A DNA stretch of 20,000 bases from an uncultured virus (IMG/VR IMGVR_UViG_3300034272_002197) (Duplodnaviria; Heunggongvirae; Uroviricota; Caudoviricetes), in the IMG/VR virus record IMGVR_UViG_3300034272_002197. The stretch is one strand, 5' to 3'. Under the pieces are notes generated by a model, which was not told the DNA's origin, made no database searches, and saw only the letters and a list, made by a program, of their open reading frames with translations. A program made the translations under genes and the position numbers. Below, piece by piece: positions 3,501 through 18,775 of the stretch. The number at the start of each line of letters is the position of its first letter. Within the stretch, counting starts at the first letter, position 1.

Positions 3501-4182
3501 TGCCAATGTTGCGGCCGCTAATGCAGCAATCGCAGCAATTGATTTTAGTTCGTTGACTGCCACCAATGCCAATGTTGCAGCAGCCAATGTAGAAATAATT
3601 TCTTTACAAGCAAATGTCACTGCAATAAACTTGCAAATCGCAACAACCAGCATTAATGTGTTTGCCAATGCCGCTACTCAGCAAATTGAGATAGATGATC
3701 TACGTGCAAATATTACTGCTGGAAATGCTTTGGCAAATTTAAGAGCAATTACAAGCAATGTGGTTCCTAATGTAAATGTTGTTTACAGCCTAGGCGAAAA
3801 TTCAAAACGCTGGGCCAATATATATGCTAACACAGCACTATATCTAGGTTTAAGCACAATTACAACCAGTGGTGGTAATATCTACGTTGATGGAAATCCA
3901 GTTGGAGCAGGCACTTACGGTAATACACAAGTGGCGCAATATTTGCCATTTCACAATGCAAATATTGCTGCAACCAATGTTAATGCATCTGCCAATATTG
4001 CAGCATCGTATATCAGTGCAACAGCAAATATTACTGCTCTTAACTTAAATGCTATCAGAGTTGTAACTTCGAATGTGTCGTATACTCTTGCCAATGGAAC
4101 GCATTGGTTATCTACAGTGTCTAATGTAGCTGCTGCGCTAGACCAAATTGCTGCAAGATTATACGCACTTGAGAACCCATAA
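541..4182 (+). CDS. Long Asn/Ala-rich tail fibre or virion appendage protein with coiled-coil repeats
   Basis: N-terminal G..A.DG.GD.LRTAF.KIN.NF.ELY motif, as at the start of T4 gp9/gp10-like baseplate and fibre proteins. Many NANVAAAN and SNAATQ repeats, a duplicated beta-rich module and a P..N..YSLG...KRW.NIY fibre motif. Confidence 0.75.
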   Translation: MAQQLIITGNAASDGGGDPLRTAFTKINNNFTELYSGNVQITAANVLVNSVNGQIGNVSLTVVDIPNAASKGYVNNAIAGNIAVLNSSFSSVNANVAAANSAISNHTARISTLESNAASQGTTLANLVASKAYISYVDSSIANALSSNAILANVVSVNANVAAANAAILTKANLSGANFTGNISTDQYIFASGARIGNADIDLDNVNGIFSVVDSRPGPFGITVQNLNTSANSIGFVAVLADDGTQNENLITIGVNNSNYNDPTYPDAEPHEAFVFANGGNLRIISNNNGLVFAAGTSRMYLDPVRDRLELLNVNIQFRDGTVQSTAFGGNVNTASIEANVAAANVRIASLQTATTISNINIASLQSNTGTLAASINTLTANAATQSISLAAINAALTLGNTNAATQTTEINSLRANITAANSNITVLRSNITSISLDINNLYSNAGLQSATLNNLVSNAATQATTLSDLYSNAATQNASLLSLTANSATQGTQINLINSNLTSANTNITSLQNGLTLANISIGTIQSNLGGYISNISTINANVSAANVEIVKLQANITAANAVINSILSNSAVGAGAVIQLQANSSAANASIATKANITGQVFTGNIQAPFVTANTTLYSLGNLSVGSNTASTFANAGATFVGNVNSIYQVLVQNKSTGNNAISSLKIASDISTDTSTHLLAGITSSTYSVGQFDNFENVNTGNTAFISAIGANLVISSNANIWLNANASGLVMFSDGDVALRSANLRFRDGSIQTTAIQDVNGLYANIGTLSINVATLTTTVGTLTGNISTLTGNAATQASALNTLDANLGTVTTNITSLTSNAATQATAINLINANITAANLNISNVNSNLGAYQTYANANVVAIQANLGAYQTYANANVVAIQANLGAYQTYANAEVATTQANLGAYQTFANANVSTLRNEVDLLNSNAGVQAVSINTINANIGSYQLFANANVSVIQANLGSFQIFANANAAVQTGLINTINANVAAANAAIAAIDFSSLTATNANVAAANVEIISLQANVTAINLQIATTSINVFANAATQQIEIDDLRANITAGNALANLRAITSNVVPNVNVVYSLGENSKRWANIYANTALYLGLSTITTSGGNIYVDGNPVGAGTYGNTQVAQYLPFHNANIAATNVNASANIAASYISATANITALNLNAIRVVTSNVSYTLANGTHWLSTVSNVAAALDQIAARLYALENP
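3097..3312 (+). repeat. In-frame 54-bp tandem repeat (NLGAYQTYANANVVAIQA), 4 copies
   Basis: Units start at 3097, 3151, 3205 and 3259. The first two are identical (AATCTTGGTGCATATCAGACTTATGCCAATGCCAATGTGGTGGCAATACAGGCC). More degenerate copies lie near 3376 and 3430. Confidence 0.95.
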
Positions 4183-4189
4183 AATTGAG

Positions 4190-4195
4190 TAAATA
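4190..4195 (+). promoter_or_regulatory. Putative late promoter core (TAAATA)
   Basis: TAAATA in the 31-bp gap between two structural genes. Confidence 0.55.
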
Positions 4196-4213
4196 TAGAA
4201 TAACGGAATAAAA

Positions 4214-6634
4214 ATGGCATATACAGCAATTAATATAGGTATTGAAGCAAACGACGGTACAGGTAGTCCGCTAAGAACGGCGTTTGATACGGTCAATGAT
4301 AACTTTCAAATTATAAATGATGGATTGTACGCTGGCACAAGACAAACTATTATTAGTGCTCTAAGTACTCAAAGTGAATATTTTCTTTCAAACACTTATG
4401 TTTTGGCAAACACATATGTCAGTGCAGACAGTCTGATTGGTAATAGTGTTACCAGCAATGGCAATTTATATGTTAGTCAAGGTGGTGCGTTTATCTATGG
4501 AAATGTCAACATTGTTGGTAATTTGACTGTAACCGGGTCGCAGCAATCTACGCAGACTTCAAGTGCAACTGCGCCTATTATTTTAATTCATGCCAACGCT
4601 TCCCCTTACACATCAAATGACAACAAAGACATTGGTTTAGAATGGCAATATTTTGATGGTGCAGACAAATATGCCTTTATTGGAAGACAAAATACAACTG
4701 GTAGTTTAGTTTACTTAGATGACATCACCGAAACAGCAAACATAATTACCTCTGGATATTTTGGTAATGTACAGTTCGGACAACTTTTATTAAGTAATAC
4801 CGAACAAGCTACTAGTAATGTAACCGGAGCTTTACAAGTTGCTGGCGGTGCTGGTATCCAAGGAAATGTTTATGTACAAAGTAATGTGTTTGTTGGTAAT
4901 ACCGCAAATGTGGCCAATCTTACCGTAAGAGGATTTCATGTAGGCTCATTGAGATTTTCCGGAGCCGATACTGTTTTAATTAACGGTAGTCCAGTACAGA
5001 CTGCTGCACAAGCATTCAATGGTGGTACTGTTGGTTTACAAACTGTTTTTGCTGATGTTACAAATTCAACCGGATTAGGCACAGGTGCAGTAAGAATTGC
5101 AGGAGGATTTAGTGCTAACGGTAATGTATTTGTCAACAACTTACACACAATCGCTGGTGGTAATATTAGATCAAACATTCTTGGTAATGTAATCACTAGC
5201 AATCAGCCGTTTATAACAACTCTAGGAACCCTATCAACTCTAAACGTTTCTGGACAAACATCAACAGCAAATATTATACCCAACACAGATAATCAACGTT
5301 GGTTGGGTACTCCGGGTAGTAGATGGCAACAGGCACATATTTTTAATTTAACACCAGCTCAAATTACCGGTGCAGTCAGTTTTAGTGGTGTTCCAAATTT
5401 TGGTTCAAATATTTTAGCAACCAGTGGCACAGACAGTGTAGACAAAACAACTGGCGCAATCGTAATTACTGGATTTGGTGGGCTTGGTGTTGGCGGCACT
5501 ATTCATGCCGGCGGTAATGTGTACATCGATAACATCAATGATGCATCTGGTTTAATTGCTTCAACTACCAATGCATATGTATTCAACGAAGTGGCCAAAG
5601 AAATATATATTGGCCAAGCCGGTGTTACTAGATTTGGTAATACTACCAAAGCAACTGCACTGTCTACCGGTGCAGTACAAGTTACATCAGGCGGTATGAG
5701 TATTAACTCGGGTAATTTATACATTGGAGGATCAGCTGGCAATGCTGTTATTGCTACTGGTAATATCAGTGCTACTGGTAATTTGGTTACATTATCCAAT
5801 GTATTTGCATCAGGTAATATTATAGGTGGTGTAGGTGTACGGGGATTCTTAGGAAATATATACGGATCACAAACAACTGGCAACACTCATGTGGGATCAC
5901 ATTTCCGTCCTACTGCAAATGTTACATTGAATCTTGGTGAGTTTTTCTTAAGATACAACACTGTCTATGCTAATGTTGTAAACTCTTATTTTGTATCTGC
6001 AGCCAATGTCATTACATCAAATGTAGAAACACAAAATTTAACAACAGGTACTATCGTGGCCAGTGGCGGGGCATTTACAGGAGCAGTCACTGCACCAACA
6101 GCACCAAATGGTACAAATACCACACAAATTGCAACTACAGAATTTGTTTTCAATAATGCATTACCTGCAGGAGCATTGATGATGTGGGCAACTGGCTCGG
6201 CACCAACAGGGTGGTTGCTGTGTCAGGGTCAGGCCGTGTCTCGATCGACCTTCTCGACACTGTTTGCAGCGATTGGTACTACTTTTGGTAGCGGCGACGG
6301 CTCAAGCACATTTAATGTTCCGGATTACAGAGATAGAATGCCAGTGGGTGCTGGATCGTTGTATTCCTTGGGTTCTACTGGTGGTAGCAAAGATGCAATA
6401 GTTGTTGCACACAGTCATAGTTTGTCGGGTGGTGGCGTTAGTGGAACTTTTGTTACTGGTGTTTCTACTTCTAGTTCAAGTTTTAACACAGTAGGTTCGA
6501 GTGCAATTACCAGTGTATCAACAACAACCGGATCTCCAACTTACACCAACCCAACAGTACAATCCGCAGGATCTTCGGGAACAAATGCCAATATGCCACC
6601 ATATCTAGGTATACAGTTTATTATTAAAACATAA
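4214..6634 (+). CDS. Tail fibre protein with C-terminal phage tail collar domain
   Basis: Same N-terminal INIG..ANDGTG.PLRTAF..VNDNF motif as the previous gene. Also the APTAPNGTNTTQIATTEFV fibre motif, the collar motif PAGALMMWATGSAPTGWLLCQGQAVSRSTFSTLFAAIGTTFG.GDG.STFNVPD.R.R, and a typical NMPPYLGIQFIIKT end. Confidence 0.88.
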   Translation: MAYTAINIGIEANDGTGSPLRTAFDTVNDNFQIINDGLYAGTRQTIISALSTQSEYFLSNTYVLANTYVSADSLIGNSVTSNGNLYVSQGGAFIYGNVNIVGNLTVTGSQQSTQTSSATAPIILIHANASPYTSNDNKDIGLEWQYFDGADKYAFIGRQNTTGSLVYLDDITETANIITSGYFGNVQFGQLLLSNTEQATSNVTGALQVAGGAGIQGNVYVQSNVFVGNTANVANLTVRGFHVGSLRFSGADTVLINGSPVQTAAQAFNGGTVGLQTVFADVTNSTGLGTGAVRIAGGFSANGNVFVNNLHTIAGGNIRSNILGNVITSNQPFITTLGTLSTLNVSGQTSTANIIPNTDNQRWLGTPGSRWQQAHIFNLTPAQITGAVSFSGVPNFGSNILATSGTDSVDKTTGAIVITGFGGLGVGGTIHAGGNVYIDNINDASGLIASTTNAYVFNEVAKEIYIGQAGVTRFGNTTKATALSTGAVQVTSGGMSINSGNLYIGGSAGNAVIATGNISATGNLVTLSNVFASGNIIGGVGVRGFLGNIYGSQTTGNTHVGSHFRPTANVTLNLGEFFLRYNTVYANVVNSYFVSAANVITSNVETQNLTTGTIVASGGAFTGAVTAPTAPNGTNTTQIATTEFVFNNALPAGALMMWATGSAPTGWLLCQGQAVSRSTFSTLFAAIGTTFGSGDGSSTFNVPDYRDRMPVGAGSLYSLGSTGGSKDAIVVAHSHSLSGGGVSGTFVTGVSTSSSSFNTVGSSAITSVSTTTGSPTYTNPTVQSAGSSGTNANMPPYLGIQFIIKT

Positions 6635-9600
6635 TGAGTACAATCACATGGATTACAAAAAAAGGAGATTTGGGCACAGTTCCCGAATCTCAGTTTTTCT
6701 TACAGCAGTTCGAAGCTGTTGATAGTGATGCTCAACCTTTGTTTTACAGTTTTATTAGCGGTGAATTGCCCGGGGGTATGTATATAACAAAATCAGGAGC
6801 ATTGCGTGGAGTACCCACTATCCTGAGTTCTGTATCCCAAACTGCAATTTATGCATTTACAGTAAGAGCAACCAATCCACAAGGACGAGTTGCAGATCGA
6901 TCTTTTTCAATAAGTGTTAGCAATATAGCGGGTCCTCAAATATTCCCTAGACCCAATCTTGTTGGAGCTTTTTTTGACGGTGAATATTTAGAATATCAAT
7001 TTTCATCAATCAATGACAATCCAGCCGCTGTGCAGACATGGAATGTGCTAGCAGGGAATCTTCCTCCCGGGACTACTTTGTCAGCCGATGGTAAACTTTC
7101 TGGCTATCTTGAGGTTATTGCATCTAATACAGATTTACTGGGCTTTGAAGCTACAGGAATAGAATCAGTTGTGTATGATGTTTTGCCCGAAAGTACTGAT
7201 CGTAATTATAACTTTACAGTACAAGTCAGTGATGGTGTTAAATTTGATACTCTTAATGTCAGAGTTTTAGTTGTCAGTAAAGCAAACTTTACTGGTGACA
7301 ACGATATTACATTAATTAATAATACATTCTTGACCATTGATCAAGATAATCGTTATCGTCCTATAATATTAAATGCACCAGATTCATTGCCTGTCAGGGT
7401 AGTTGGGGATACCTTTGCATATAAATTTTTAGCATATGATCCTGAAGACGAAGATATTTCCTGGAAGGTTGACGAATTAGCATTTAGTGGTATGGACGAA
7501 CTTGATGGTGCTGATAGTCAAATTATCACTGGCAACGGTACTGCAGGTCCATATACACTAACTCAATCTGCTGGAGCAAGTGAAATTTGTGTACGAGTCA
7601 ATGACGTTCTATTGACACCAATTGACGATTACACCACTACTATAAATCAATTAACATTTACAAACTATACAATTTCCAGTATTGTAAGGACCAACGACGA
7701 GGTAGTACTTACCACTTCGACCCCACACAATTTCACAGCCGGCGACGCAGTTGACGTTTATGGTGTTCCAACTGTTGCTCTTCGTGGAAGATTTACTATC
7801 ACTGAAGTGGTGTCAGATTATGTGTTTAAATATGATCAGGGCGGCACAGATACCAGTGATTCGTCGGGTACTGTTGCTATAAGAGCACCAAATGCAACCG
7901 ATGTTGTTGAAGTTCTCTTTATTGAGCCAACAACAGGTTTTGATACCATCAGATTTGACCAAGGTGCTGCAGGATTACAATTGGGTTTACAAATAAATCA
8001 AGGCACTGGTTGGTTGTTTGGTACTCTTCCAGAACAGACAGAAGACAAAAAAACTTACGAAGTATCTATCAGAGCTTATAGAACTCTTAATGTTGACTAT
8101 TTAAGTGATCCAGTAACTTTTAATTTAACGGTAAAACGAACCAGGAATGAGGAAATCATTTGGAATACACCAAATGATTTAGGATATATTGATAACGGGT
8201 CAATCAGTGAAATGACCATTAGTGCTACTAATACTGTAGGTAAAGAGTTAGAATACACTCTTGTGTATGAACCATATCGTAGAGTGCCGCAAGGTCTTAG
8301 AATGTTAAGATCAGGACAATTTGTAGGAAAAGTTACTTTTAGATATTTCAGCCTTGATAGTGCAAGAGGTTTCTTGCCCATGACCACTGTAGAAGGTATC
8401 CAAATTGGCATGAGTGTGCAAGGTGTAGGCGTTGCAGCTGGTTGTGAAGTAACTGATATTCTTGAAAACAATATTATTGAAGTTCGTCCAGCAATTTATG
8501 TGGTGCAAGGTTCACCACTGACTTTTAGCAATGACGAAAACACTATAGTCATTAACACAATAGCAAATGCTATTTCTACTGTGATTGACGGTGGCGGTAC
8601 TACTTTTGACCAAGATTGCAGATTCAGCGTCAAGGCCGAAGCAATCGACAAGTCTATATCTTCGGTGAACAATTTTGTTGTGCATGTAAGACCAAGAAAC
8701 CTTGCACCTTATGAAAATCTTTTCTTGAAAGCTTTACCAAAAGAAGAACAACGTTTAGCTTTAAAAAATATACTAGAAGATCAAACTATAGTACCCAAAG
8801 ATTTACTATATAGACCCGATGATGCATTTTTTGGTTTACAAAAAAATCTTAAATTTTTATTCTTACCTGGATTGAGTTCATCAAAAGCAAGCACGGTAAT
8901 TAATTCTATCGCATTGAATCATTATACAAAATCATTGAATTTTGGAAATATAAGAACTGCTAGGGCAGTTAATAACCAAGGTACGATTGATTACGAAGTT
9001 GTTTATGTTGATGTTTTAGACAATCAACAATTTGATGGAGTAGGACCACCTCTCAGTGTAAACCTAACCACAAAAAATAAATTTAAATTTGGTAATAATG
9101 AATATTCGACTATATATCCAAATAGTTTCAATAACATGCAAAATAGGCTTGAGGTAGGTCTAGGGTACACAAACAGAGGAGCTCTACCTAGATGGATGAC
9201 CAGCGTTCAAGAAGATGGTAGAGTTTTAGGCCTGACAAGAGCAGTGGTATTGGCCTACACCAAACCCGGGGCGTCAAAACTTATTGCTTACAGATTACAA
9301 AATAGCGATTTTAAATTAAATTCTATAGACTTTGTAGTAGATAGATATCAGTGGGATAATTATCTTTCTAAATTCTACGATACTGACACCAACAGATTCT
9401 TGCCCAGTCGCGATACAACTTTTGACAAATATCCCAATCTAGGTGTGGGTAGCGATGTGATTGTGGGCAGCGTGATATTCCCAATTACTGACTCTAATAC
9501 AATTGTTATTACAGACAATCTAAAAATAGGTTATGGTTGGATTTGTTTTAGTACCGACACCCTGTCAGAAGTTCAAGCAAATACTGCTGTCAGGTCCGTA

Positions 9601-10383
9601 GAATTAACATCAGTTGACGGACAGCGTGCTTTGAATATGGTGCTATCTTCTAACATCACAGCATCAGTTGGGGCTGTATTGAAATTTGACGGTTCTGCTA
9701 GAGTAGATTATGCTGTGTCGGGACCGTTTAGTCAAATTAATGGAAATACAGTTGGAAATGTAAAGCGTTTAGGATTGATTGACGGTATTACCAATTTTGT
9801 AGAAAATGAACTAATTATCTTTGCCAATCAGTCAAATTTTGGTAGCGAATATCTGAATGATGGTTGGATGCTAACAGATGGAATTACCAGTGTACCAGGA
9901 TACCTAGACAAGCTGTCGGGATTGAGCAAGGTAAATCAACGAGGCGGTGTTTGGCAAATGACTTGGCAGGAATTAATACCACTGGGATTTGACAGCCCAG
10001 CTGCTGGATTTGACGAAGCCAGTCCGGGATTTGCATATTCTCGATTTGATCAAGGCGGCGATGCCGAAATCTTGCTAGAGTTCCAAAATGAATGTAATTT
10101 AGCACAGACTGTTAAAGTAAGAACCGGTAAAAGTTATCCTGCAAGTACCTTGCAATATAGGCAGTCTGCCGGTGAAGTAGTTCCAAGATATAGAATATTT
10201 ACAGGATCTTTGGCCAGCGAGGAAACCACATTTGATGGGGGTAGTTGTCAGTGCCGCGAAGGAGATCCTGGAAAAGGCGGTGTACGTGGGGGTACAGCGT
10301 TTAGTAATAACAGAGACAAATATATCATTCCAGAATCTGAGGATAAATATATCAAGTTCCCACAAAATGGAGTATTCGTATAA
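6634..10383 (+). CDS. Large virion structural protein with putative Ig-like (He_PIG-type) repeats, likely a baseplate component
   Basis: Four G.LP.G..L...G.L.G repeats (GELPGGMYITKSGALRGVP, GNLPPGTTLSADGKLSG, LQLGLQINQGTGWLFGTLP, RVPQGLRMLRSGQFVG) followed by Y.FTV.A-type strands. TAATG-coupled to the fibre gene. Confidence 0.7.
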   Translation: MSTITWITKKGDLGTVPESQFFLQQFEAVDSDAQPLFYSFISGELPGGMYITKSGALRGVPTILSSVSQTAIYAFTVRATNPQGRVADRSFSISVSNIAGPQIFPRPNLVGAFFDGEYLEYQFSSINDNPAAVQTWNVLAGNLPPGTTLSADGKLSGYLEVIASNTDLLGFEATGIESVVYDVLPESTDRNYNFTVQVSDGVKFDTLNVRVLVVSKANFTGDNDITLINNTFLTIDQDNRYRPIILNAPDSLPVRVVGDTFAYKFLAYDPEDEDISWKVDELAFSGMDELDGADSQIITGNGTAGPYTLTQSAGASEICVRVNDVLLTPIDDYTTTINQLTFTNYTISSIVRTNDEVVLTTSTPHNFTAGDAVDVYGVPTVALRGRFTITEVVSDYVFKYDQGGTDTSDSSGTVAIRAPNATDVVEVLFIEPTTGFDTIRFDQGAAGLQLGLQINQGTGWLFGTLPEQTEDKKTYEVSIRAYRTLNVDYLSDPVTFNLTVKRTRNEEIIWNTPNDLGYIDNGSISEMTISATNTVGKELEYTLVYEPYRRVPQGLRMLRSGQFVGKVTFRYFSLDSARGFLPMTTVEGIQIGMSVQGVGVAAGCEVTDILENNIIEVRPAIYVVQGSPLTFSNDENTIVINTIANAISTVIDGGGTTFDQDCRFSVKAEAIDKSISSVNNFVVHVRPRNLAPYENLFLKALPKEEQRLALKNILEDQTIVPKDLLYRPDDAFFGLQKNLKFLFLPGLSSSKASTVINSIALNHYTKSLNFGNIRTARAVNNQGTIDYEVVYVDVLDNQQFDGVGPPLSVNLTTKNKFKFGNNEYSTIYPNSFNNMQNRLEVGLGYTNRGALPRWMTSVQEDGRVLGLTRAVVLAYTKPGASKLIAYRLQNSDFKLNSIDFVVDRYQWDNYLSKFYDTDTNRFLPSRDTTFDKYPNLGVGSDVIVGSVIFPITDSNTIVITDNLKIGYGWICFSTDTLSEVQANTAVRSVELTSVDGQRALNMVLSSNITASVGAVLKFDGSARVDYAVSGPFSQINGNTVGNVKRLGLIDGITNFVENELIIFANQSNFGSEYLNDGWMLTDGITSVPGYLDKLSGLSKVNQRGGVWQMTWQELIPLGFDSPAAGFDEASPGFAYSRFDQGGDAEILLEFQNECNLAQTVKVRTGKSYPASTLQYRQSAGEVVPRYRIFTGSLASEETTFDGGSCQCREGDPGKGGVRGGTAFSNNRDKYIIPESEDKYIKFPQNGVFV

Positions 10384-11466
10384 ATGACAAGCCAAGTTAA
10401 TCCAAATAATATTGACGGTACGTATCCGGTAGCAGGCCAAGACAATGACAGCCAAGGTTTCCGTGATAACTTTACCAACATTCGTAATAATTTTACCTAT
10501 GTAAAAGCCGAGATTGAAGACATTCAAAATAAGGCTGTTTTTAAATCTGCACTGAGTAATACTACACTAGAAAATGATCTATTAGGTAATGCTATTGTAG
10601 GTGCAAGTTTCACTGGCTATAGAGAAACATATAATAATATCGGAGCAGTTAGCGGAGCCATTACAGTAGATTTCGCCAACGGAAATTTCCAAAAAATAAC
10701 ACTAGCCGGCGTAACCACTCTTTCATTTACATTTCCTAGTAATGCAGCCAATCAAAACGCTAAAATTACGCTCTGGGTAAGTGTCAGTAATCCATCTCAC
10801 ACACTAACAATACCAGGCGCAGTATCCTTAGGCGATAAAGATACTATAGCAGGTTTGATCTCAAACACAATTACATTTAGTGCAGTTGAATTAGGTAATG
10901 CAACTGATTACTTTTTTGAATTTAGTACAGTAGATTATGGACAAAATATTGCAATCAAAGATCTAACTAGAAACAGAGCTTATAATTTTAGTGGGTTGAC
11001 TGTTTCTGGTGGTAATCTAGTTGCCAATTCGACCACAACAAGCACTTCGGCTACAACTGGAGCACTAGTTGTTAGAGGTGGAGTTGGTGTAGCAGGAAAT
11101 GTATTTGTAAATGGTAATCTAATTGTCAATAGTGGTATTATTAATCCCGATTATTTTATCGCCAATGTAGTCACAGATCAAAATTTATTTGCCAATGTTA
11201 ACTATAATAGATTTATTGCAAACTGCTCACCAACTGGTACAGTTGCCAATTTGTTTATTACCTTGCCAGATTCTGTAGAAGATGGTCGAATGCTCGACCT
11301 TGTATCAACAACTCCAATAACCAGTTGTTTTGTTTCAAATATGACTCCTGGACTAGCATCAGTTTATGGATTAGCTAACAATTGGTCAGCATCAGCAAGT
11401 TTAACCAACTCAGTAGCAATCAGTCTAATGTATAGCGCATCAGTTGCTCGTTGGTTTAAAGTTTAA
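10384..11466 (+). CDS. Virion structural protein (fibre or baseplate-associated)
   Basis: N-terminal YPVAGQDNDSQGFRDNF.NI..NF followed by a short coiled coil. Shares the STSATTGALVVRGGVGVAGNVFV motif with the 4214 gene. Last gene of the structural run; GGAG RBS upstream. Confidence 0.62.
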   Translation: MTSQVNPNNIDGTYPVAGQDNDSQGFRDNFTNIRNNFTYVKAEIEDIQNKAVFKSALSNTTLENDLLGNAIVGASFTGYRETYNNIGAVSGAITVDFANGNFQKITLAGVTTLSFTFPSNAANQNAKITLWVSVSNPSHTLTIPGAVSLGDKDTIAGLISNTITFSAVELGNATDYFFEFSTVDYGQNIAIKDLTRNRAYNFSGLTVSGGNLVANSTTTSTSATTGALVVRGGVGVAGNVFVNGNLIVNSGIINPDYFIANVVTDQNLFANVNYNRFIANCSPTGTVANLFITLPDSVEDGRMLDLVSTTPITSCFVSNMTPGLASVYGLANNWSASASLTNSVAISLMYSASVARWFKV

Positions 11467-11482
11467 AAAATTTATAAAATCA

Positions 11483-11511
11483 TTGACTCCTAGCTTTGCA
11501 TAGTTTATAAT
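11483..11511 (+). promoter_or_regulatory. Sigma70-type promoter
   Basis: TTGACT (11483-11488), 17-bp spacer, TATAAT (11506-11511), with an AT-rich UP-like tract upstream. Confidence 0.85.
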
Positions 11512-11532
11512 TGTGCAAACTAGGAGTTTTTT
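11485..11532 (+). terminator. Intrinsic-terminator-like hairpin ending the structural operon and overlapping the promoter and RBS of the next gene
   Basis: GACTCCTAG-C-TTTGCATA pairs with TGTGCAAA-CTAGGAGTT, followed by a T6 run (11527-11532). Confidence 0.65.
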
Positions 11533-11967
11533 ATGACTGTAGATTTAAATAGATATTCAGTTTTTGTGGAAGCCGTAACTTCGCGTCCTTCGAACGACTT
11601 GACCACTTTTATGAATCGTTTGGATGAACTAGACGCTAATTTTGATTACGAACAAGACAAACATGGCCCAGATATCAATGTGCCATTGTTATTAACCGCA
11701 GCATTAGGACTGGCAGCAGAAACTGGAGAGTTTTGTGAAATCCCAAAGAAAATGTATTTCCAAGGTAAACCACTAACTGAAGAAAATGTATTTCATATGA
11801 AGCGCGAGCTAGGCGATATCATGTGGTATTGGATTAATGCTTGTAGAGCACTTGGTCTAAATCCAAATGATGTCATTGAGGAAAACGTAAATAAATTAAA
11901 AGCCAGATATCCAGGAGGAGAATTTGATGTACACTACTCCGAAAATAGACACGCTGGAGATCTATAG
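11533..11967 (+). CDS. mazG: MazG-like nucleoside triphosphate pyrophosphohydrolase
   Basis: AALGLAAETGEFCEIPKK...KRELGDIMWY...NVNKLKARYP fits the ExxE...ExGD all-alpha NTP-PPase pattern. AGGAG RBS upstream. Confidence 0.88.
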   Translation: MTVDLNRYSVFVEAVTSRPSNDLTTFMNRLDELDANFDYEQDKHGPDINVPLLLTAALGLAAETGEFCEIPKKMYFQGKPLTEENVFHMKRELGDIMWYWINACRALGLNPNDVIEENVNKLKARYPGGEFDVHYSENRHAGDL

Positions 11968-12038
11968 TGCTTGCCTGGGTCGACGATTTTCCTCCTTTGA
12001 ATTTATGGAATTGGCCCAGTTTCAATTTAGGAGATGTT

Positions 12039-12278
12039 ATGCACCCACTTGTTCCGAACTTGTCTGATCTTTCAAATGAAGATTTACACAAAAAATATAA
12101 CGAGTTAATGACAAAAATGAATCAAGCTTATCGTTTTGGTCCAACTAGTATTATTCCGCAGATGCAAATGATACTAGAAAATTACAAGCACGAAATGGAT
12201 ACACGTAATAGAAAGACTCTCGAAGAAATGGAAGCCAAAAACGATAAATTCAAAGGGTTAATTGATATTAAAAAATGA
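12039..12278 (+). CDS. Hypothetical helical protein (79 aa)
   Basis: ATG at 12039 is preceded by AGGAGA. Preferred over the GTG at 11967 given in the ORF track. Its stop overlaps the next gene (ATGA). Confidence 0.75.
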   Translation: MHPLVPNLSDLSNEDLHKKYNELMTKMNQAYRFGPTSIIPQMQMILENYKHEMDTRNRKTLEEMEAKNDKFKGLIDIKK

Positions 12279-12787
12279 AGATTGATCAATACGGTGTAGT
12301 TCATTCTTCCAGTGATGAATTGTTCGAACTTCTCTATCTGAATCCTGACATAGATCTTTCGAATGTGTTTGTAGATGATCCTGACAGGTATAACAATGCT
12401 GTAAAAGATTTTTATGCAGACTTACCAAAGCTCAGAGAGTACAGTTTACAATCAACGGACATAGAAACATTTGATAGAGAAAATCAATCTAAATGGTCAA
12501 TGCCCGACGAATATTGCAACATGGACATAGCCAACTGGCTATTGGCTCAATGCAAAACACAAGAAGAACTGCAACGAGTAGGCAAAGAATTGCTGCTGTA
12601 CCAAGAAAGAGATTTATTTCCGTTACTAAAACAATTAAAATATATTGTTGATATGTGGCGGAAAAATAACATAGTATGGGGAGTCGGTAGAGGATCCAGT
12701 GTTGCAAGTTATATTCTATATTTAATTGGAGTACACAGAATTAACAGTATGTATTATGATTTAGATATAGAAGAATTCTTACGATAA
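12275..12787 (+). CDS. dnaE: DNA polymerase III alpha (DnaE)-like N-terminal palm fragment (split or partial enzyme)
   Basis: RVGKELLLY...LKYIVDMWRKNNIVWGVGRGSSVASYILYLIGVHRINSMYYDLDIEEFLR aligns by eye with DnaE RL..EL..I...VG.GRGS.AGSLVAY.L.IT..DP....L.FERFL. Only 170 aa long. Confidence 0.85.
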   Translation: MKIDQYGVVHSSSDELFELLYLNPDIDLSNVFVDDPDRYNNAVKDFYADLPKLREYSLQSTDIETFDRENQSKWSMPDEYCNMDIANWLLAQCKTQEELQRVGKELLLYQERDLFPLLKQLKYIVDMWRKNNIVWGVGRGSSVASYILYLIGVHRINSMYYDLDIEEFLR

Positions 12788-12790
12788 ATA
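12785..12790 (+). promoter_or_regulatory. Putative late promoter core (TAAATA)
   Basis: ATAAATA overlaps the dnaE-fragment stop and is followed by AAGGAGA and the ATG at 12810. Confidence 0.55.
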
Positions 12791-12809
12791 CCCGCACAAG
12801 GAGACATTA

Positions 12810-13220
12810 ATGAATAAAAGAGTTTACACTTCAGCAAATGGTAGACGAATTAATATAGATGCAATTATTGCTCAAAACGAAAGCACAATTGCAGTTGGTA
12901 ATATGAAAGTAAATGCTCGTGGTGATCAATTAGGCCCTGGTGGCAAAGTAGAACTAACTAGGGATAAAGTTATGCAAGATCATTATAAAATGAATACTCC
13001 GTTGGCTGTAGATGAGCCACCGCAGCCAAGAAAGCGTGAAGTAAAAAAAGATCTAGTCGACGAGTGGGTAGAACCAATTCAACCAGAACCAGAACTACCA
13101 GTAGCAGAAGCTTCATCGACACCTCAGCCCAAACTGAGAGGAAGTCTAGCAGACTCAATCGCAAAAAATCAACCAACTACAAAAGTACCTGTAAAACGTT
13201 CAGGTCCTTCAAGAATTTAA
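12810..13220 (+). CDS. Hypothetical phage protein
   Basis: Clean ORF with a strong RBS. Compact N-terminus (AVGNMKVNARGDQLGPGG) and Pro/Glu/Lys-rich, probably disordered, C-terminus. Confidence 0.8.
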   Translation: MNKRVYTSANGRRINIDAIIAQNESTIAVGNMKVNARGDQLGPGGKVELTRDKVMQDHYKMNTPLAVDEPPQPRKREVKKDLVDEWVEPIQPEPELPVAEASSTPQPKLRGSLADSIAKNQPTTKVPVKRSGPSRI

Positions 13221-13229
13221 GGAATTAAC

Positions 13230-13652
13230 ATGGCAGTCTCGAATCCGTTTGATCAAAAACGTGGATATCAATTTGAAATAGAAATTGACGGTGAAATCAA
13301 ACCATTACGTGACAGTGTTATTGTCACCGAAATGGACTTTAGTGGTAGGAAATTAGCTAGTGGAGTAATATTACTTGGTGACGACGGTAAAACAGACGGT
13401 ATTCGTCCGCGATGGGCAAGAGTATATGCTATTGGGCCAGAACAACGCGACGTTAGTGTGGGTCAATGGGTGCTTATTGAACACGGAAGATGGAGCAGAG
13501 GTCTTAGAATTGTTAAAGACGGAGAAGAAATCGTCATACGTCGTGCGGATCCTAACGCAATTATTTTTGCCGCAGACACACAACCGGACGACATAAACAC
13601 CATTTCAACCGCAGTACATGCCGAACGAAAAAGTCGCGAACAGTACGAATGA
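13230..13652 (+). CDS. groES: GroES-like co-chaperonin
   Basis: IKPLRDSVIV...LASGVILL...ARVYAIGP...VSVGQWVL follows the Cpn10 pattern PL.DRV.V...SGI.L...V.AVG.G...V.VGD.V. AAGGA RBS upstream. Confidence 0.85.
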   Translation: MAVSNPFDQKRGYQFEIEIDGEIKPLRDSVIVTEMDFSGRKLASGVILLGDDGKTDGIRPRWARVYAIGPEQRDVSVGQWVLIEHGRWSRGLRIVKDGEEIVIRRADPNAIIFAADTQPDDINTISTAVHAERKSREQYE

Positions 13653-13879
13653 TCAAACACTGGAATGTTGAGAACATAATCAATCAACTGCATTCCTGTG
13701 GCCATGCAATGAATGATCCACGCATGGACGGTTTTGTGACGTGGGGTTGCAAACAAGATCTATACACAATCAAATTTATCTTGGACGATATACTAGAAAA
13801 TTCCCCTACTTATTCTGTAGAAAAAGAATGGCTAGAAGAACGTGCTAAAGAAAAGACCTGGAAAATTATTTCAAAATGA
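13649..13879 (+). CDS. Hypothetical protein (76 aa)
   Basis: ATGA overlaps at both ends and exactly fills the gap between neighbours. Confidence 0.75.
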   Translation: MIKHWNVENIINQLHSCGHAMNDPRMDGFVTWGCKQDLYTIKFILDDILENSPTYSVEKEWLEERAKEKTWKIISK

Positions 13880-14667
13880 ATCAAACATCTATCAAATTAC
13901 GCAACGGGTACAGACTTGAGTTACCCGACGGTGAAAACTGTTATTGGTTTGAAATGGATCATCCTAGAGAAAAGGTACCTGATTTTAAAACCATTTACGA
14001 TTACTACATCGAAAAGAACTATTGGAAATTGTGGATCAAACCCGGAATGACCTGTATCGACATCGGAGGCCATAGCGGTGATACTGCTATCCCAATGATG
14101 AGTCAATGCAGAGCCACTGTTTTATCTGTAGAGCCCAATCCTGTTATCAGTCCCTATTTAGAATTTAATTGCAGCGTTAACAGTCATCTAGGACGATTCG
14201 TTATTGCACACGAAGCAGTTACAAATAAAACTGCCGACAATCTCACTTTTAAAGATCATCAAAACAGTATGTGCAACGGTGGCCTAGTTGGTGAAACTTG
14301 GGATGCCGAAACCGCAGCTAGAGTAGCAGGAATGAGTGGAGACAGTATCACAGTGTCTGGAATGACTTTGGAAGATATGTGCAAAAAGTACCTTAGTCCA
14401 GACGAGATTGCAAATATTGGATTTATTAAAACAGATACTGAAGGACATGATATAGAAATCATTAGGAGTTCGCGTGATATTCTAGTAAAATATAAACCTG
14501 TGTTATTCACTGAGTGGTTTGTTGCGTATTCACAAGCCGACACAGACGAACTATTCCGAGTAATTGACCAAGCCGGATATGTTGCATTTTATCCAGACAC
14601 AATGAAAGAAGCCGATCCCAGCGTTCGTAGCGAAGACTTAATCTGCTTACATCGAGACAATATATGA
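13876..14667 (+). CDS. FkbM-family SAM-dependent methyltransferase
   Basis: CIDIGGHSGD (motif I), VLSVEPNP, and FIKTDTEGHDIEII (FkbM KIDVEG.E motif) followed by KPVLFTE. Confidence 0.88.
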   Translation: MNQTSIKLRNGYRLELPDGENCYWFEMDHPREKVPDFKTIYDYYIEKNYWKLWIKPGMTCIDIGGHSGDTAIPMMSQCRATVLSVEPNPVISPYLEFNCSVNSHLGRFVIAHEAVTNKTADNLTFKDHQNSMCNGGLVGETWDAETAARVAGMSGDSITVSGMTLEDMCKKYLSPDEIANIGFIKTDTEGHDIEIIRSSRDILVKYKPVLFTEWFVAYSQADTDELFRVIDQAGYVAFYPDTMKEADPSVRSEDLICLHRDNI

Positions 14668-15584
14668 AAGAACTTTGGACTGAAAAATATCGCCCACAAA
14701 CATTAGATGGGTATGTATTCACTGACCCTGCACAACGAGAGCAAATCGAATATTTTATTCGAGAAAAAAGTATTCCACATTTACTTTTTAACGGACCGGC
14801 CGGTACAGGTAAAACAACTCTAGCTAAAATTTTAGTAAACAGTTTAGACATTGACCCATACGATTTTTTGCAGGTCAATGCCAGTAGAGATAATGGCGTT
14901 GATTTTCTCAAGAACAAAATTGAAGGTTTTGTTAGCACCATGCCGTTTGGTGATTTAAAGATTGTATTACTAGACGAAGCTGATTATTTGAGTCATAATG
15001 CACAGGCTATCTTGCGCGGATTGATGGAAACTTATGCCAGTCAAGCTAGATTTATTCTTACGTGTAATCTAGCACATAAAATTATTAATCCGCTCAAAAG
15101 TCGTTGTCAACAGTTTGTTATTGACAAAACAGATTCAACTGAATTTACCACAAGAGTGGCCACTGTGTTAATTACAGAAGGAGTAGAATTCGACATCGAC
15201 ACCCTAGACAGTTATGTCAAAGCCACTTATCCAGATTTACGCAAGTGTTTAAACTTATTGCAAAGCAATAGTGTAAGTGGCAAGTTGTCTATATCCAAAA
15301 GCAGCGATTCGGGTACTACAGACTACAAACTAGATGTAGTAAACTTATTCAAGCAAGGAAAGATACGCGAAGCAAGAACATTATTTTGCTCACATACTTC
15401 TGCTGATGAATGTGAGAACGCATTTACCTGGATGCATCAAAATTTAGATTTGTGGTCAAGTACCCTTGAAGGTCAAGACGAAGCAATTAAAATTATACGT
15501 AAAGGTGCAGCTACACATTCATTAGTAGCAGATCATGAAATCAATCTTTCAGCAACATTTGTAGAACTCAGTCAAATATCATGA
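14664..15584 (+). CDS. Sliding-clamp loader AAA+ subunit (RFC small subunit / T4 gp44-like)
   Basis: LWTEKYRPQTL, PHLLFNGPAGTGKTT (Walker A), NASRDNG, IVLLDEADYL (Walker B), FILTCN, and the SRC motif (LKSRCQ). Confidence 0.95.
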   Translation: MKELWTEKYRPQTLDGYVFTDPAQREQIEYFIREKSIPHLLFNGPAGTGKTTLAKILVNSLDIDPYDFLQVNASRDNGVDFLKNKIEGFVSTMPFGDLKIVLLDEADYLSHNAQAILRGLMETYASQARFILTCNLAHKIINPLKSRCQQFVIDKTDSTEFTTRVATVLITEGVEFDIDTLDSYVKATYPDLRKCLNLLQSNSVSGKLSISKSSDSGTTDYKLDVVNLFKQGKIREARTLFCSHTSADECENAFTWMHQNLDLWSSTLEGQDEAIKIIRKGAATHSLVADHEINLSATFVELSQIS

Positions 15585-15958
15585 AAAAACAAAACATTTA
15601 TCTTGTAGCACACTACGTGACTAGACCACGAGATCCAAAGAAAACACACATACCAGGCTATATGAAAGATCCTGCCAATCATCAATATGACGAACAGGTT
15701 CAAATCAGTACAAGATTACGTAAACAAGATGTTAATGCTAAAATTATTATTAATCTTACTGATAAAAAAGTTGAACAGAATAGCTTTAATGGTAAAAAAG
15801 ACTTTGACGAACTATTTAAATATTTTTTCAAAGGGTATCACAAGTATGTGACCGAAGTAATGTCCAAGCTTGATCCAGAATATTTTAATCAAATGTTAGA
15901 TGAAATGCAAGCAGAATTAGACAAGGAAAAAGTCAATGAAGAAGTTCCGGCTGAGTGA
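15581..15958 (+). CDS. Hypothetical protein
   Basis: ATGA-coupled ORF in the operon; no recognisable motif. Confidence 0.75.
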   Translation: MKKQNIYLVAHYVTRPRDPKKTHIPGYMKDPANHQYDEQVQISTRLRKQDVNAKIIINLTDKKVEQNSFNGKKDFDELFKYFFKGYHKYVTEVMSKLDPEYFNQMLDEMQAELDKEKVNEEVPAE

Positions 15959-16259
15959 ATCTGGTGCTAGAGGTTGGTTTATTGGAGACTTTCCTGAAGC
16001 TGTAATACGTACAAAGGATTTTGAAGTTTGTTGGCAAGCTAATCCTGCTGGCGCAGTTGATACTCCGCACATGCACAAAGTTATTACTGAAGTTCAACTT
16101 ATTACCAAAGGACGTATAGTAATCAACGGTGAGGAATTTGGACCTGGGGATATCTATGTCAGCCAGCCCGGGGAAGAATATAGAGCATACTACACAGAAG
16201 ACACTGAAGTAGTTGCTATCAAGTTTCCTAGCGTCCCTGGCGATAAATATTATATATGA
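15936..16259 (+). CDS. Cupin (RmlC-like) domain protein
   Basis: PHMHKVITEVQLITKGRIVINGEEFGPGDIYVSQPGE matches the cupin HxH...E...G motif 1 and GD....PG motif 2. AAGGA upstream. Confidence 0.8.
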   Translation: MKKFRLSESGARGWFIGDFPEAVIRTKDFEVCWQANPAGAVDTPHMHKVITEVQLITKGRIVINGEEFGPGDIYVSQPGEEYRAYYTEDTEVVAIKFPSVPGDKYYI

Positions 16260-16495
16260 GCAATATCTTCAAAGCAATGAAAGCAAAAAAGAAACGGGCA
16301 GTGGACCCTAATGCTCCGCCGCGTCCTAATCTAATGACTCATGAAGTTAAACTCAAAGAACAAAAACAAGATTTTCAAACTTTGGTAAACATAGTACAGC
16401 AACAAGAAGAAAAAATTAGACGATTAGAATCTAAATTAAATTACCAAACGAATTATCTACAAACCCTGCATCATAAAATTTCAAACAACAAATGA
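16256..16495 (+). CDS. Small basic coiled-coil protein, hypothetical
   Basis: ATGA overlaps at both ends. Lys-rich N-terminus and heptad-like C-terminus. TAAATA at 16244-16249 lies just upstream. Confidence 0.72.
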   Translation: MSNIFKAMKAKKKRAVDPNAPPRPNLMTHEVKLKEQKQDFQTLVNIVQQQEEKIRRLESKLNYQTNYLQTLHHKISNNK

Positions 16496-16995
16496 TAACA
16501 TTATATTTAGACATGGACGGAGTCGTAGCCGACTTTGATGAGTATGCGGCACGGACTTTGGGAATTCCTCCCAGCCAAGGAATATATCCTGATGAAGTGT
16601 GGTACAAATTGGCCAGCAATGCTAGACTTTATAGAGATCTAGTAAAAACATCTTATGCAGATGAGTTAGTTTTTCAATGCAGTCGACTTGCAAAACAACA
16701 TGGCTATGATTTAAAATTTCTAACTGCTGTACCTAAAGGCAATGATGTACCTTGGGCATTTTACGACAAAGTAGTTTGGGTGCAAACACATTTTCCAGGC
16801 ATTCCTGTTATGTTCGGCCCTTTCAGCAAAGACAAACATGTACATTGTCGCCCTGGTGATATTTTAATCGACGACCGCAAGAGTAATATTGAGGAATGGC
16901 GTGCTGCTGGTGGCCTAGCAATACTTCACACTGATTTTGCTGACACAATGACTCAATTGAATCACTTGATTCCGCAAGTTTCATTACAAGTATAA
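16492..16995 (+). CDS. HAD-superfamily 5'(3')-deoxyribonucleotidase-like protein
   Basis: LYLDMDGVVADF (motif I), FLTA (motif II), K, and ILIDDRKSNIEEWRAAGG (motif IV). Confidence 0.9.
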   Translation: MITLYLDMDGVVADFDEYAARTLGIPPSQGIYPDEVWYKLASNARLYRDLVKTSYADELVFQCSRLAKQHGYDLKFLTAVPKGNDVPWAFYDKVVWVQTHFPGIPVMFGPFSKDKHVHCRPGDILIDDRKSNIEEWRAAGGLAILHTDFADTMTQLNHLIPQVSLQV

Positions 16996-17957
16996 ATTTT
17001 ACCTTGTGCAACAGAGTCTAAATTCCAGGACTGCTCAATTTCATTAAACCATTCCACAGCATGTTCGATACTGTGTTCCAATGCATTATTATTTTTAATA
17101 ATAGGACGTAGCTGCATATTACTAGGATTACCTGTTTCTTGCATAGGATAGAACCCTAGCCAGCAGCATGGATATACTTCGCCGTTGGCTGTTATATATA
17201 TTTCTTTTTGTTTTTTGGCATAGCAGTCAATTTTTCTATTAGCATGCTCAGTCTGTAATATAGTAATTTCAGGTTTATCGACATAATGTAGATGAAACGT
17301 AAATAACTCGTCAAAGTTTTTACTACCAGTATAGTTGCCTAGGCTATGACTGTAATTTCCATCTCTAGTAAAAACTGGCCCGACGTTGCGTCCGGCGTCT
17401 ACAATGTGAAATTCTCGAAATCCCAACTGTTTAGATAATTCTCTAGCTTGATCAATTTGATGTTCATTGTGAACAAAAGGTATGAATGCCCATATTGCGT
17501 ATCCACCAGCAGCAATAAACTTACTAGCATTTTCCATAATCAAATCAAAATCTGTATATTGACGATATAGATGATGTGTATCTTTAAGACCGTCTAATCT
17601 AAAATGCACTCGTGTGTTTAATTCACCAAGTCGGCTCCAGATATTAGGACGACCGCTGGCATTGGTACTAATTTCGATTGTTAGATTGGGATTTACATCA
17701 GTAAAATATTCTACTATTTCTAATCCATCTCGGGCCGTGATAAAATCTCCGTAATTGCCGTTGATCAATATATGATTTAGTTGTTTAAGAAAAGAAGGGG
17801 GAAATATTTTTTTTGCCTGTTCTAACGACATGTCGCAGATAGGATAAGAATCAATGACATCAACACCTCGAAAATTTCTTGGACATTCAGGACAAGCAGC
17901 ATTGCATCTAGTTGAAATTTCCAAATGAACGCTGCTTATGTCATTGTATTTTAGCAT
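16962..17957 (-). CDS. Radical SAM enzyme with C-terminal SPASM/twitch-like Cys cluster
   Basis: HLEISTRCNAACPECPR (CxxxCxxC), GNYGD, ISTNAS, FRLDGL, and C-terminal C...IYITANGEVYPCCW...CNETC. Confidence 0.92.
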   Translation of the reverse strand: MLKYNDISSVHLEISTRCNAACPECPRNFRGVDVIDSYPICDMSLEQAKKIFPPSFLKQLNHILINGNYGDFITARDGLEIVEYFTDVNPNLTIEISTNASGRPNIWSRLGELNTRVHFRLDGLKDTHHLYRQYTDFDLIMENASKFIAAGGYAIWAFIPFVHNEHQIDQARELSKQLGFREFHIVDAGRNVGPVFTRDGNYSHSLGNYTGSKNFDELFTFHLHYVDKPEITILQTEHANRKIDCYAKKQKEIYITANGEVYPCCWLGFYPMQETGNPSNMQLRPIIKNNNALEHSIEHAVEWFNEIEQSWNLDSVAQGKIYTCNETCGIK

Positions 17958-17973
17958 TCAGTATTTAACTACA

Positions 17974-18690
17974 TTACACCTCCCCGTATAGTTTAAGAAC
18001 TTCAGCTACAGCAGGATGTCTTCTGACGTCCTTGACTGCAAATTCTACACCAGCAATGTATTGGCTGTCAAAGTTTCGAATCAAACTTTGGAAGTCCAAT
18101 AATCCGTTGTCCTTGGCCCTACGGTCGGCCTGCTGTGTATCACCTGTAATAACCATCTTGGAGTTTTCGCCGAGTCGAGTTAGCAGCATTTTCATCTGAC
18201 TTGGTGTCGCGTTTTGCATCTCATCTGCAATAATCCACGAATTTTTAAATGTCCGCCCTCGCATGTATGCTAGTGGAGCAATCTCAATATATTTTTCTTC
18301 TAGCAGACGCAATACCTCCTGTGGTTTGTAATACTCTTCTATGATATCAAAGATGGGCCTAGTCCAAGGTTCCATCTTTTGATTTAGTGTACCCGGCAAA
18401 AATCCGTGTTGCTCGTCGTCAACGCCTACTGCGGGCCTAGTAATAACAATCTTAGAGCATTCTCCTGCTCTAAATGCTTTTAGTGCAGCCAACACAGCCA
18501 GCATAGTTTTGCCTGTTCCTGCCGGGCCTGCGGCATATACTATTAAGCGTTGGGGATTTTCTAGTAAATCTATATAATTTTCTTGATTGAGACTCTTGGG
18601 AATTAGTTGAATGGTGCGGCGTTGTTTTTGATATGAATCTATTTGTACTACTTGTAATTGTGCTGCTTCGCTGCGACGGCGTTTGCTCAA
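17974..18690 (-). CDS. phoH: PhoH-family ATPase
   Basis: GPAGTGKT, IVITRPAV, GFLPGTL..KM.PW, APLAYMRGRTF, IIADEMQN, LLTRLGE, GDTQQAD and VRRHP motifs. Start set at TTG 18690 because AAAGGAGG lies 4 nt upstream. Confidence 0.95.
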   Translation of the reverse strand: MSKRRRSEAAQLQVVQIDSYQKQRRTIQLIPKSLNQENYIDLLENPQRLIVYAAGPAGTGKTMLAVLAALKAFRAGECSKIVITRPAVGVDDEQHGFLPGTLNQKMEPWTRPIFDIIEEYYKPQEVLRLLEEKYIEIAPLAYMRGRTFKNSWIIADEMQNATPSQMKMLLTRLGENSKMVITGDTQQADRRAKDNGLLDFQSLIRNFDSQYIAGVEFAVKDVRRHPAVAEVLKLYGEV

Positions 18691-18775
18691 GACTACCTCC
18701 TTTAAAATTGGTGGATCTGTCATTGCCTTGTCCTTGTAGTGGGCTTGGCAACCTTTTTAATCAAGTCCACGTAAA

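Follow-up and report, generated by a model that had tools for sequence, protein, structure and literature searches.

The N-terminal subunit gene of a probable two-chain minimal C-family polymerase in an uncultured freshwater phage

We examined a 20,000-nucleotide stretch of DNA (hereafter, the window) from the uncultured virus record IMGVR_UViG_3300034272_002197 of IMG/VR, assigned to the Caudoviricetes, and in particular one of its open reading frames (ORFs), which starts with ATG and encodes 170 amino acids (aa) (12275-12787, plus strand, stop included). This ORF probably encodes the N-terminal, nucleoside triphosphate (NTP)-binding subunit of a two-chain minimal C-family nucleotidyltransferase, similar to DNA polymerase III alpha and typical of the T4-related group 2.2 jumbo phages, that would serve as an accessory DNA polymerase of the replisome. 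We call this subunit the N-half and its partner the C-half. Both halves are homologous to C-family polymerases, the breakpoint between them is fixed, the two families co-occur and evolve under purifying selection, and their genes lie in replication neighborhoods. The split two-piece layout has been in print since 2021 as a computational prediction, so our finding is a rediscovery, and the window represents one more uncultured freshwater member of the family.

The N-half ends in ...DLDIEEFLR and a TAA stop (12785-12787, plus strand), 29 codons past a GVGRGS motif (residues 136-141; 12680-12697, plus strand), which is the G[SG] triphosphate-binding motif of Pol-beta-fold nucleotidyltransferases; this stop is a breakpoint whose position is kept across the family. 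In Pfam, residues 92-169 matched PF07733 (DNA_pol3_alpha) with 34.4 bits (cutoff, 23.9) over profile positions 17-94 of 260 only, and no other family, including PHP (PF02811) and inteins, was found at an E value of ≤0.1. An NCBIfam scan gave DnaE matches below threshold only, and the N-half contains no thumb, full fingers, clamp-binding, or OB domain. The chain stops ahead of the place of the catalytic aspartates, which bona fide C-family polymerases carry on the chain with the GS motif, and a six-frame scan of the whole window detected no D-x-D-x-D-hydrophobic motif. A second in-frame stop follows within 10 codons of the first, and the next, unrelated gene (ATG at 12810) has its own ribosome-binding site, which reads AAGGAG (12798-12803, plus strand). 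The first-pass annotation, made from the sequence of the window, had described a stand-alone DnaE fragment of just this kind, with a GxGRGS motif, no PHP domain, no intein, and no in-frame continuation, and this description held throughout. The whole ORF was letter-identical in contigs from two other DNA runs, neither flagged as a possible source (X3, 1101 nt, covering 12099-13199; X4, 968 nt, covering 12045-13012), so the truncation is not an assembly artifact.

The two parts of the N-half differ in conservation. Residues 76-170 (12500-12784, plus strand) form the first part of a C-family palm, as indicated by structural alignment and by hidden Markov model matches, and are equivalent to residues 280-401 of Escherichia coli alpha and 307-421 of Mycobacterium tuberculosis DnaE1; within them, residues 131-170 are 82 to 97% identical to those of relatives. 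Residues 1-75 (12275-12499, plus strand) are variable (27 to 55% identity), with a moderately confident model of a small alpha/beta region that has no clear structural match. In NCBIfam, weak alignments to DnaE (positions about 196-245) extend back as far as residues 21-37, and this region might, judging from sequence, be a vestige of the end of a PHP domain. The N-terminal sequence NPDIDLS was considered as a second DxD motif and dropped, as its second Asp alone is conserved. Between the window and the relative L011, no gene of the block is less conserved than the N-half (72% versus 80 to 96% for its neighbors), because residues 1-75 diverge fast.

The N-half matched phrog_11127 ("DNA polymerase") end to end (E = 6e-46, positions 9-171 of 171). 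With tblastn it was found in 93 phage records, every one below 60% identity and all of those listed being jumbo phages; they include Atu_ph07, SCTP-2, PA5oct/MIJ3, 121Q/G17/RaK2-like, GAP32, and CBB-like phages. Atu_ph07 was the best isolate match (42% identity), and relatives in IMG/VR had 55 to 72% identity. A profile search of 1.84 billion representatives returned 1270 matches at E ≤ 0.001 (902 at ≤1e-10 and 308 at ≤1e-30). The best 150 of these were 95 to 222 aa long (median, 173), and 148 of them carried G[VIL]GRGS, the remaining 2 being truncated fragments; GVGRGS was invariant in 9/9 aligned relatives. Among the 148 motif-bearing representatives, the chain ended exactly 29 residues past the motif in 103, as in the window, and between 29 and 37 residues past it in 146. 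The ratio of nonsynonymous to synonymous substitution rates (dN/dS, Nei-Gojobori method) was about 0.06 to 0.18 overall; comparison of the window with its nearest relatives, for which dS is near saturation, gave 0.17 and 0.12, and the close pair L018/L019 gave 0.064 (17 synonymous versus 5 nonsynonymous differences).

The N-half breakpoint is thus fixed and under purifying selection. A decaying pseudogene remnant of a full-length dnaE acquired from a host would agree with the match to part of PF07733 and with the missing DnaE domains, and the first-pass annotation had named variable breakpoints and relaxed selection as its signs. Because the breakpoint is fixed and selection is purifying, both signs fall away for the family. 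The low dN/dS, the stop kept in nearly all motif-bearing representatives, the large number of representatives, the synteny kept from Agrobacterium to Pseudomonas phages, and the identical ORF in independent metagenomes all speak against such a remnant; the conservation data exclude it, and we give it practically no weight.

We looked for a partner in two complete genomes, those of Atu_ph07 (490 kb) and MIJ3 (288 kb), in which scans with PF07733 and PF17657 revealed no second palm piece. A weak match to the finger domain PF17657 (E = 0.007) in Atu_ph07 led to a 191-aa ORF that begins MKNIPDIDIDF, and this ORF, used as a query, had homologs with 44 to 51% identity in MIJ3, in a 203-kb contig (G001), and in a 42.5-kb contig (G004). 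A 170-kb contig (G005) also contained both the N-half and the C-half. Both halves were present in 4/4 relatives of 170 kb or more, and one half only was found in the fragments G002 (105 kb), G003 (54 kb), G006 (73 kb), and G007 (32 kb). Across phage records the C-half was found in 96 and the N-half in 93, with nearly identical genus tallies. The first-pass annotation had predicted that a partner starting near PDxDxD would be encoded elsewhere in the genome, which proved correct, at the level of the family, in every sufficiently large relative examined. It had also proposed checking for a separate family B polymerase, and one is present in relatives.

The C-halves carry what the N-half lacks. 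All of those examined begin with Met, and the strand motif D[IV]D[IL]D[FLV] was preceded by 3 to 5 residues in 10/11 and by 16 in the other (L040). We counted motifs in 120 metagenomic homologs of 190 to 216 aa, out of 2331 clusters at 90% identity. DxDxD near the N terminus and K[LI]DxLN, the third acidic motif, were found in 120/120, with the first D at residue 6 in 100, and the finger motifs RP[GAS]K and F[KR][KR][SA]H were each found in 119/120. The C-half had a dN/dS of 0.09 to 0.26 and is placed by PHROGs in phrog_11778 ("DNA polymerase"); Pfam and NCBIfam scans of it gave no match, PHP and intein/Hint families in Pfam included. Many C-halves (P0158-P0277; L039, 3550-3609) end in acidic residues and then a short hydrophobic tail (for instance, ESGHTFD, EETTVIV, ..QLSEHLFN, and ..DPFKLFS) that recalls the docking tails of replisome proteins. 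We dropped a clamp-binding reading of these tails, which share no consistent motif.

The two genes are far apart: 29 to 224 kb in a hand count of the 26 records common to both printed lists, and about 77 kb in G001, 35 kb in G004, and 40 kb in G005. In some records, such as G001, they lie on opposite strands. A precedent for separated halves exists in the cyanobacterial DnaE (Ssp/Npu), which is encoded by two distant genes, as the phage pair is, and made into a full-size enzyme by protein trans-splicing; Wu, Hu, and Liu reportedly described split inteins joining a split dnaE in 1998. The phage halves might likewise be joined covalently, by a split intein, trans-splicing, or ribosomal bypass. 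Neither half has a Hint/intein family, and there is no space for intein halves, as the N-half ends about 6 residues, and the C-half starts 3 to 5 residues, before the DxDxD strand on the DnaE template. Unlike the cyanobacterial enzyme, the phage pair is cut inside the catalytic core. With the distances and strands given above, these features make covalent joining very improbable. No fused form of the two halves was found among the 150 best N-half representatives, in 7 N-half proteins of at least 299 aa, or at ≥357 aa from the C-half side, blanks that are weak evidence.

Both halves align to one DnaE template in the expected order. The N-half profile aligned to Thermus aquaticus (Taq) DnaE 407-454 (..GPGRGS..FERFL) and to M. 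tuberculosis DnaE1 361-406. The C-half profile was colinear with DnaE1 at 413-424 (MPDIDIDFDDRR), 564-664 (KMDFLGL ... YRPG), and 763-787 (FNKSH). Since the N-half ends at DnaE1 residue 406 and the C-half starts at 413, the cut maps between these two residues, in the loop that links the GS-motif helix to the metal-binding strand. By the pattern hG[GS]...DhD of Pol-beta-fold nucleotidyltransferases, reportedly set out by Aravind and Koonin in 1999, this position falls within the minimal catalytic core.

Structural comparison gave the same picture. In an exhaustive structural search of 48161 chains with VIA-align, 5 chains matched the N-half model with a Z of ≥5, all of them C-family polymerases; the best was 5lew_A (Z, 6.3; root mean square deviation [rmsd], 3.1; 89 aligned residues; model 76-169 on 307-421), and E. 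coli alpha (5fku_A) aligned with a Z of 5.9 (model 79-169 on 280-401). For the C-half, 7 chains had a Z of ≥5, again all C-family polymerases, and the next row had a Z of 4.2. Its best match was PolC (3f2b_A; Z, 9.3; rmsd, 2.8; 133 aligned), and it aligned to 5fku_A with a Z of 8.6 (model 71-203 on 559-791). The C-half family covers only residues 555-791 of E. coli alpha, and its residues 1 to ∼66 stand for E. coli alpha 401-555, so the thumb is almost gone, and the fingers are reduced to a core. The AlphaFold2 models had a mean predicted local distance difference test (pLDDT) score of 67.4 for the N-half and 65.7 for the C-half (alignments of 7 and 10 rows). In isolation, N-half residues 134-146 and 150-170 and C-half residues 1-74 had a pLDDT of <50, and these segments are the conserved palm pieces of both halves. 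In the models, such pieces would fit a sheet that forms on association only, a hint no stronger than these shallow alignments allow.

Several observations weigh against a two-chain polymerase. The sequence link between the C-half and DnaE is weak, with the low-scoring PF17657 match, nothing from Pfam otherwise, and phrog_405 at an E value of 5e-4, and the whole-sequence E value of the C-half profile against DnaE1 in the PDB was just 0.16. Both AlphaFold2 models are of middling confidence and rest on shallow alignments. In a Foldseek search of the PDB, neither model had a match at E ≤ 0.001, and C-family polymerases ranked no higher than 13 (7pu7_A, E = 3.3) and 22 (9qpc_A, E = 5.2). The window phage's own C-half was not seen in the 20 kb of the window, which has no DxDxD motif; a megablast search of phage records with window positions 10000-16000 gave no match, and an exact 45-mer was absent from the metagenome contigs searched. 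Further, an enzyme that lacks thumb, clamp-binding, and proofreading domains may not work as a processive templated polymerase. Finally, in two metagenomic proteins (P0152 and P0153, 400 and 383 aa) the downstream phrog_14844 protein is fused in frame to the C terminus of the N-half, which is unexpected if that terminus must adjoin the partner's first strand. The junction reads QDKN, with Q at the place of the stop codon, and the fusion might mark the phrog_14844 protein as a third partner or might result from a point mutation or from stop-codon recoding.

This fusion would also suit a reading in which the N-half alone has a noncatalytic role, as an adaptor or decoy for the clamp loader, for the host polymerase III machinery, or for nucleotides, with the C-half family being functionally independent. 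The N-half gene is invariably linked to the clamp-loader block and not to the C-half, and its N-terminal 133 residues are predicted by AlphaFold2 to fold alone with moderate confidence. However, the best-conserved part of the protein is the incomplete active-site piece that is predicted to be unfolded alone, the C-half starts within a few residues of the N-half stop on the DnaE template, and the two families co-occur almost 1:1. We therefore regard a noncatalytic N-half as improbable. The two-piece minimal polymerase interpretation is supported for the family, and for the window phage, in which the presence of the partner is inferred from its relatives, it is highly probable.

In the two-chain enzyme, the N-half would supply its variable N-terminal region and the first palm elements, namely, the triphosphate-binding motif and the helix after it. 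The C-half, encoded tens of kilobases away, would supply the D-x-D-x-D-F strand, the third acidic motif (K-L-D-x-L-N), and a reduced finger domain with RP[GAS]K and FK[KR]SH, with almost no thumb. With the cut inside the Pol-beta-type catalytic core, neither chain would form an active site alone. With no intein or splicing involved, the chains would bind each other noncovalently, and the resulting enzyme, about 370 residues in all, would lack PHP, beta-clamp-binding, and OB domains. Given that the N-half lies by clamp-loader genes, the C-half lies by a primase and a DnaB-like helicase, and a T4-type family B polymerase is present, an accessory replisome polymerase is most likely, with primer extension or hand-off, lagging-strand synthesis, and repair synthesis as candidate jobs.

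The same two-chain active site could instead be nontemplated, belonging to a terminal or primer-modifying nucleotidyltransferase or to a synthase of a nucleotide signal or decoy directed against host defense. The small size and the loss of thumb, clamp-binding, OB, and PHP domains would fit this, as would a family B replicase already present in these phages and a MazG-like nucleotide pyrophosphatase in the same apparent transcription unit as the N-half. However, the finger motifs and the finger fold of the C-half are of the C-family polymerase type, and in DnaE/PolC ternary complexes the RP[GAS]K and FK[KR]SH motifs touch the incoming deoxynucleoside triphosphate and the template. Both genes are located in replication modules, MazG is near the N-half in 8/11 loci only, and PADLOC defense-system models matched neither half nor the flanking small proteins. 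Gene context thus favors an accessory role in the replisome over nucleotide signaling, which the first-pass annotation had put forward as a possible job along with priming and repair, and we consider a nontemplated enzyme unlikely. The first-pass annotation had seen the position in an operon with MazG as suggestive; the two genes do share an apparent transcription unit in the window, and the link is loose in the family. Unlike MazG, the invariant neighbors of the N-half are the genes downstream of it (phrog_14844 protein, GroES-like protein, and clamp loader; 11/11 loci).

A more elaborate version of the accessory polymerase can be offered tentatively. With two chains totaling about 370 residues, the pair would be the smallest known C-family polymerase. 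Its active site would be obligately heteromeric, and assembly would serve as a control point. Synthesis of the N-half would go together with that of the clamp loader, and synthesis of the C-half with that of the primase-helicase. The halves would come together nowhere but at a primed, clamp-loaded junction, where they would elongate new primers before passing them on to the family B replicase, in a phage counterpart to the hand-off from DnaE to PolC or from Pol alpha to Pol delta. The phrog_14844 protein could be a third subunit in this scheme. If the chains rebuild a working active site, they would illustrate how a polymerase catalytic core can be divided within its fold in nature; the C family would gain a very small model enzyme, and T4-like jumbo-phage replisomes would have a second polymerase. 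It is important to note that the C-half is invisible to Pfam and NCBIfam and that both halves are often labeled "hypothetical protein" or, misleadingly, "DNA polymerase III alpha."

Compared with the one-chain enzymes DnaE and PolC (5fku, 5lew, 2hpi, and 3f2b), the phage pair has a homologous palm start with GxGRGS, and its C-half carries the DxD and third-Asp motifs and the finger core. It differs in having two chains of about 170 and 200 aa in place of one of about 1100 to 1400 aa, in lacking PHP, clamp-binding, and OB domains, and in having almost no thumb and reduced fingers. In the literature, the closest description is by Iyer, Anantharaman, Krishnan, Burroughs, and Aravind (2021, Viruses 13:63, PMC7824862) and concerns group 2.2 jumbo phages, for which a "split minimal DNA polymerase III alpha" is described. 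The passages of that paper on the split enzyme describe an N-terminal NTP-binding protein and a C-terminal Mg2+- and template-binding protein, encoded by distant genes, with the other Pol III domains absent. According to the same passages, the split enzyme accompanies a family B polymerase, with which it may cooperate in the synthesis of one strand or in repair, and an RFC-like clamp loader and DnaB go with it; Atu_ph07 is named in group 2.2. Every feature that we checked against these passages agrees with the family found here, with no difference in kind. We equate the two families from this description and from Atu_ph07 rather than from an accession-level match. Relative to the family of Iyer et al., the window adds an uncultured lake-water relative with ≤72% identity to IMG/VR contigs and <60% to isolates.

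Single members of the N-half family had been annotated before, as the first-pass annotation had noted for related jumbo phages. In the relevant part of the Atu_ph07 paper (Attai et al., 2018, PMC6102473), the fragment is listed as "Pol III alpha subunit (gp316)," and an epsilon-like exonuclease (gp671) is noted. The "DNA polymerase III alpha subunit" annotations in Atu_ph07 (gp316), GAP32, MIJ3, and 121Q-like phages concern the same gene family as the N-half and do not remark on the missing catalytic residues or the partner. A term search of the PA5oct omics paper (PMC7318152) returned no mention of a DNA polymerase, and the PaBG and RsoM2USA phage papers concern other subunits. Full-text literature searches found no biochemical or genetic study of the split enzyme.

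The surroundings of the N-half are conserved as a block. In 11/11 loci the order was N-half, phrog_14844 protein, GroES-like protein, 0 to 2 inserts, and clamp loader. In the window, these neighbors are the phrog_14844 protein (136 aa; 12810-13220, plus strand), a GroES/gp31-like co-chaperonin identified by family matches and synteny (13230-13652, plus strand), and the large subunit of an RFC/gp44-like AAA+ clamp loader (14664-15584, plus strand; phrog_168, E = 4e-75). In Atu_ph07, the N-half is four genes from the clamp loader. Upstream of the N-half, the MazG-like pyrophosphatase (11533-11967, plus strand) is the first gene of the apparent transcription unit and is followed by a 103-aa phrog_15348 protein (11967-12278, plus strand), whose TGA stop overlaps the N-half start (ATGA) and which is present in the 9 IMG/VR loci of the 11. 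In MIJ3, MazG is 3.5 kb from the N-half. The gap before MazG contains a promoter-like site, TTGACT-17-TATAAT (11 of 12 positions; 11483-11511, plus strand), which is a lead only, such sites overall being no more frequent than in shuffled sequences; no terminator-like site was found after it in the window up to 17100.

The C-half block has its own order: an SF2 helicase, three small proteins (one with a C2H2 zinc finger), the C-half, a convergent 125-aa phrog_11637 ORF that adjoins it in 12/12 loci, one gene, a Toprim primase, and a DnaB-like helicase. The zinc-finger protein upstream of the C-half is phrog_11058 (L031, 2291-3958, and 11 other loci). Of the T4-like replication set, the window contains the clamp loader; the other members, namely, a family B polymerase, a primase, and DnaB, were seen in relatives only. 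The family B polymerase is one frame of 899 aa in G001 (L043). It occupies two frames in Atu_ph07 (578 and 418 aa; L005/L008) and in MIJ3 (825 and 379 aa; L006/L009) and would be a second split polymerase in these two phages.

The phrog_14844 protein has a conserved N terminus of about 60 aa followed by a Pro/Glu-rich tail, and an ESM Atlas search with it returned unnamed viral clusters only. In a further metagenomic protein, P0151 (666 aa), a ribonucleotide-reductase fragment (PF02867) directly follows a complete N-half (ending ..DVEEFLE); this singleton is possibly a chimeric contig or a gene-call artifact. The window (13876-14667), L011, L012, L014, and L015 each have an FkbM-type methyltransferase that separates the clamp loader from the GroES-like gene. 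This methyltransferase is absent from L013, L016-L019, Atu_ph07, and MIJ3 and has the look of a mobile insertion. Farther downstream are a 5'-3' deoxyribonucleotidase-like gene (16492-16995, plus strand), a radical-SAM-like gene (16962-17957, minus strand), and PhoH (17974-18723, minus strand). Upstream are three very large tail-fiber or structural genes (541-10383); for one of them (1249 aa), PHROGs gave no match.

Two RNA-labeled runs (X19 and X20) contained short contigs over 13261-13587 in the GroES-like gene, with 8 differences, and X19 contained an additional 35-nt piece at 12891-12925, inside the gene downstream of the N-half. No contig from these two runs covered the N-half ORF, whose expression is thereby neither shown nor excluded. 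At least half of the sampled words of window positions 11400-13700 were present in 18 public runs from many studies, two of them possible sources, dated 2020 to 2025 and mostly labeled lake water or freshwater metagenomes, and the phage lineage of the window thus recurs widely in fresh water.

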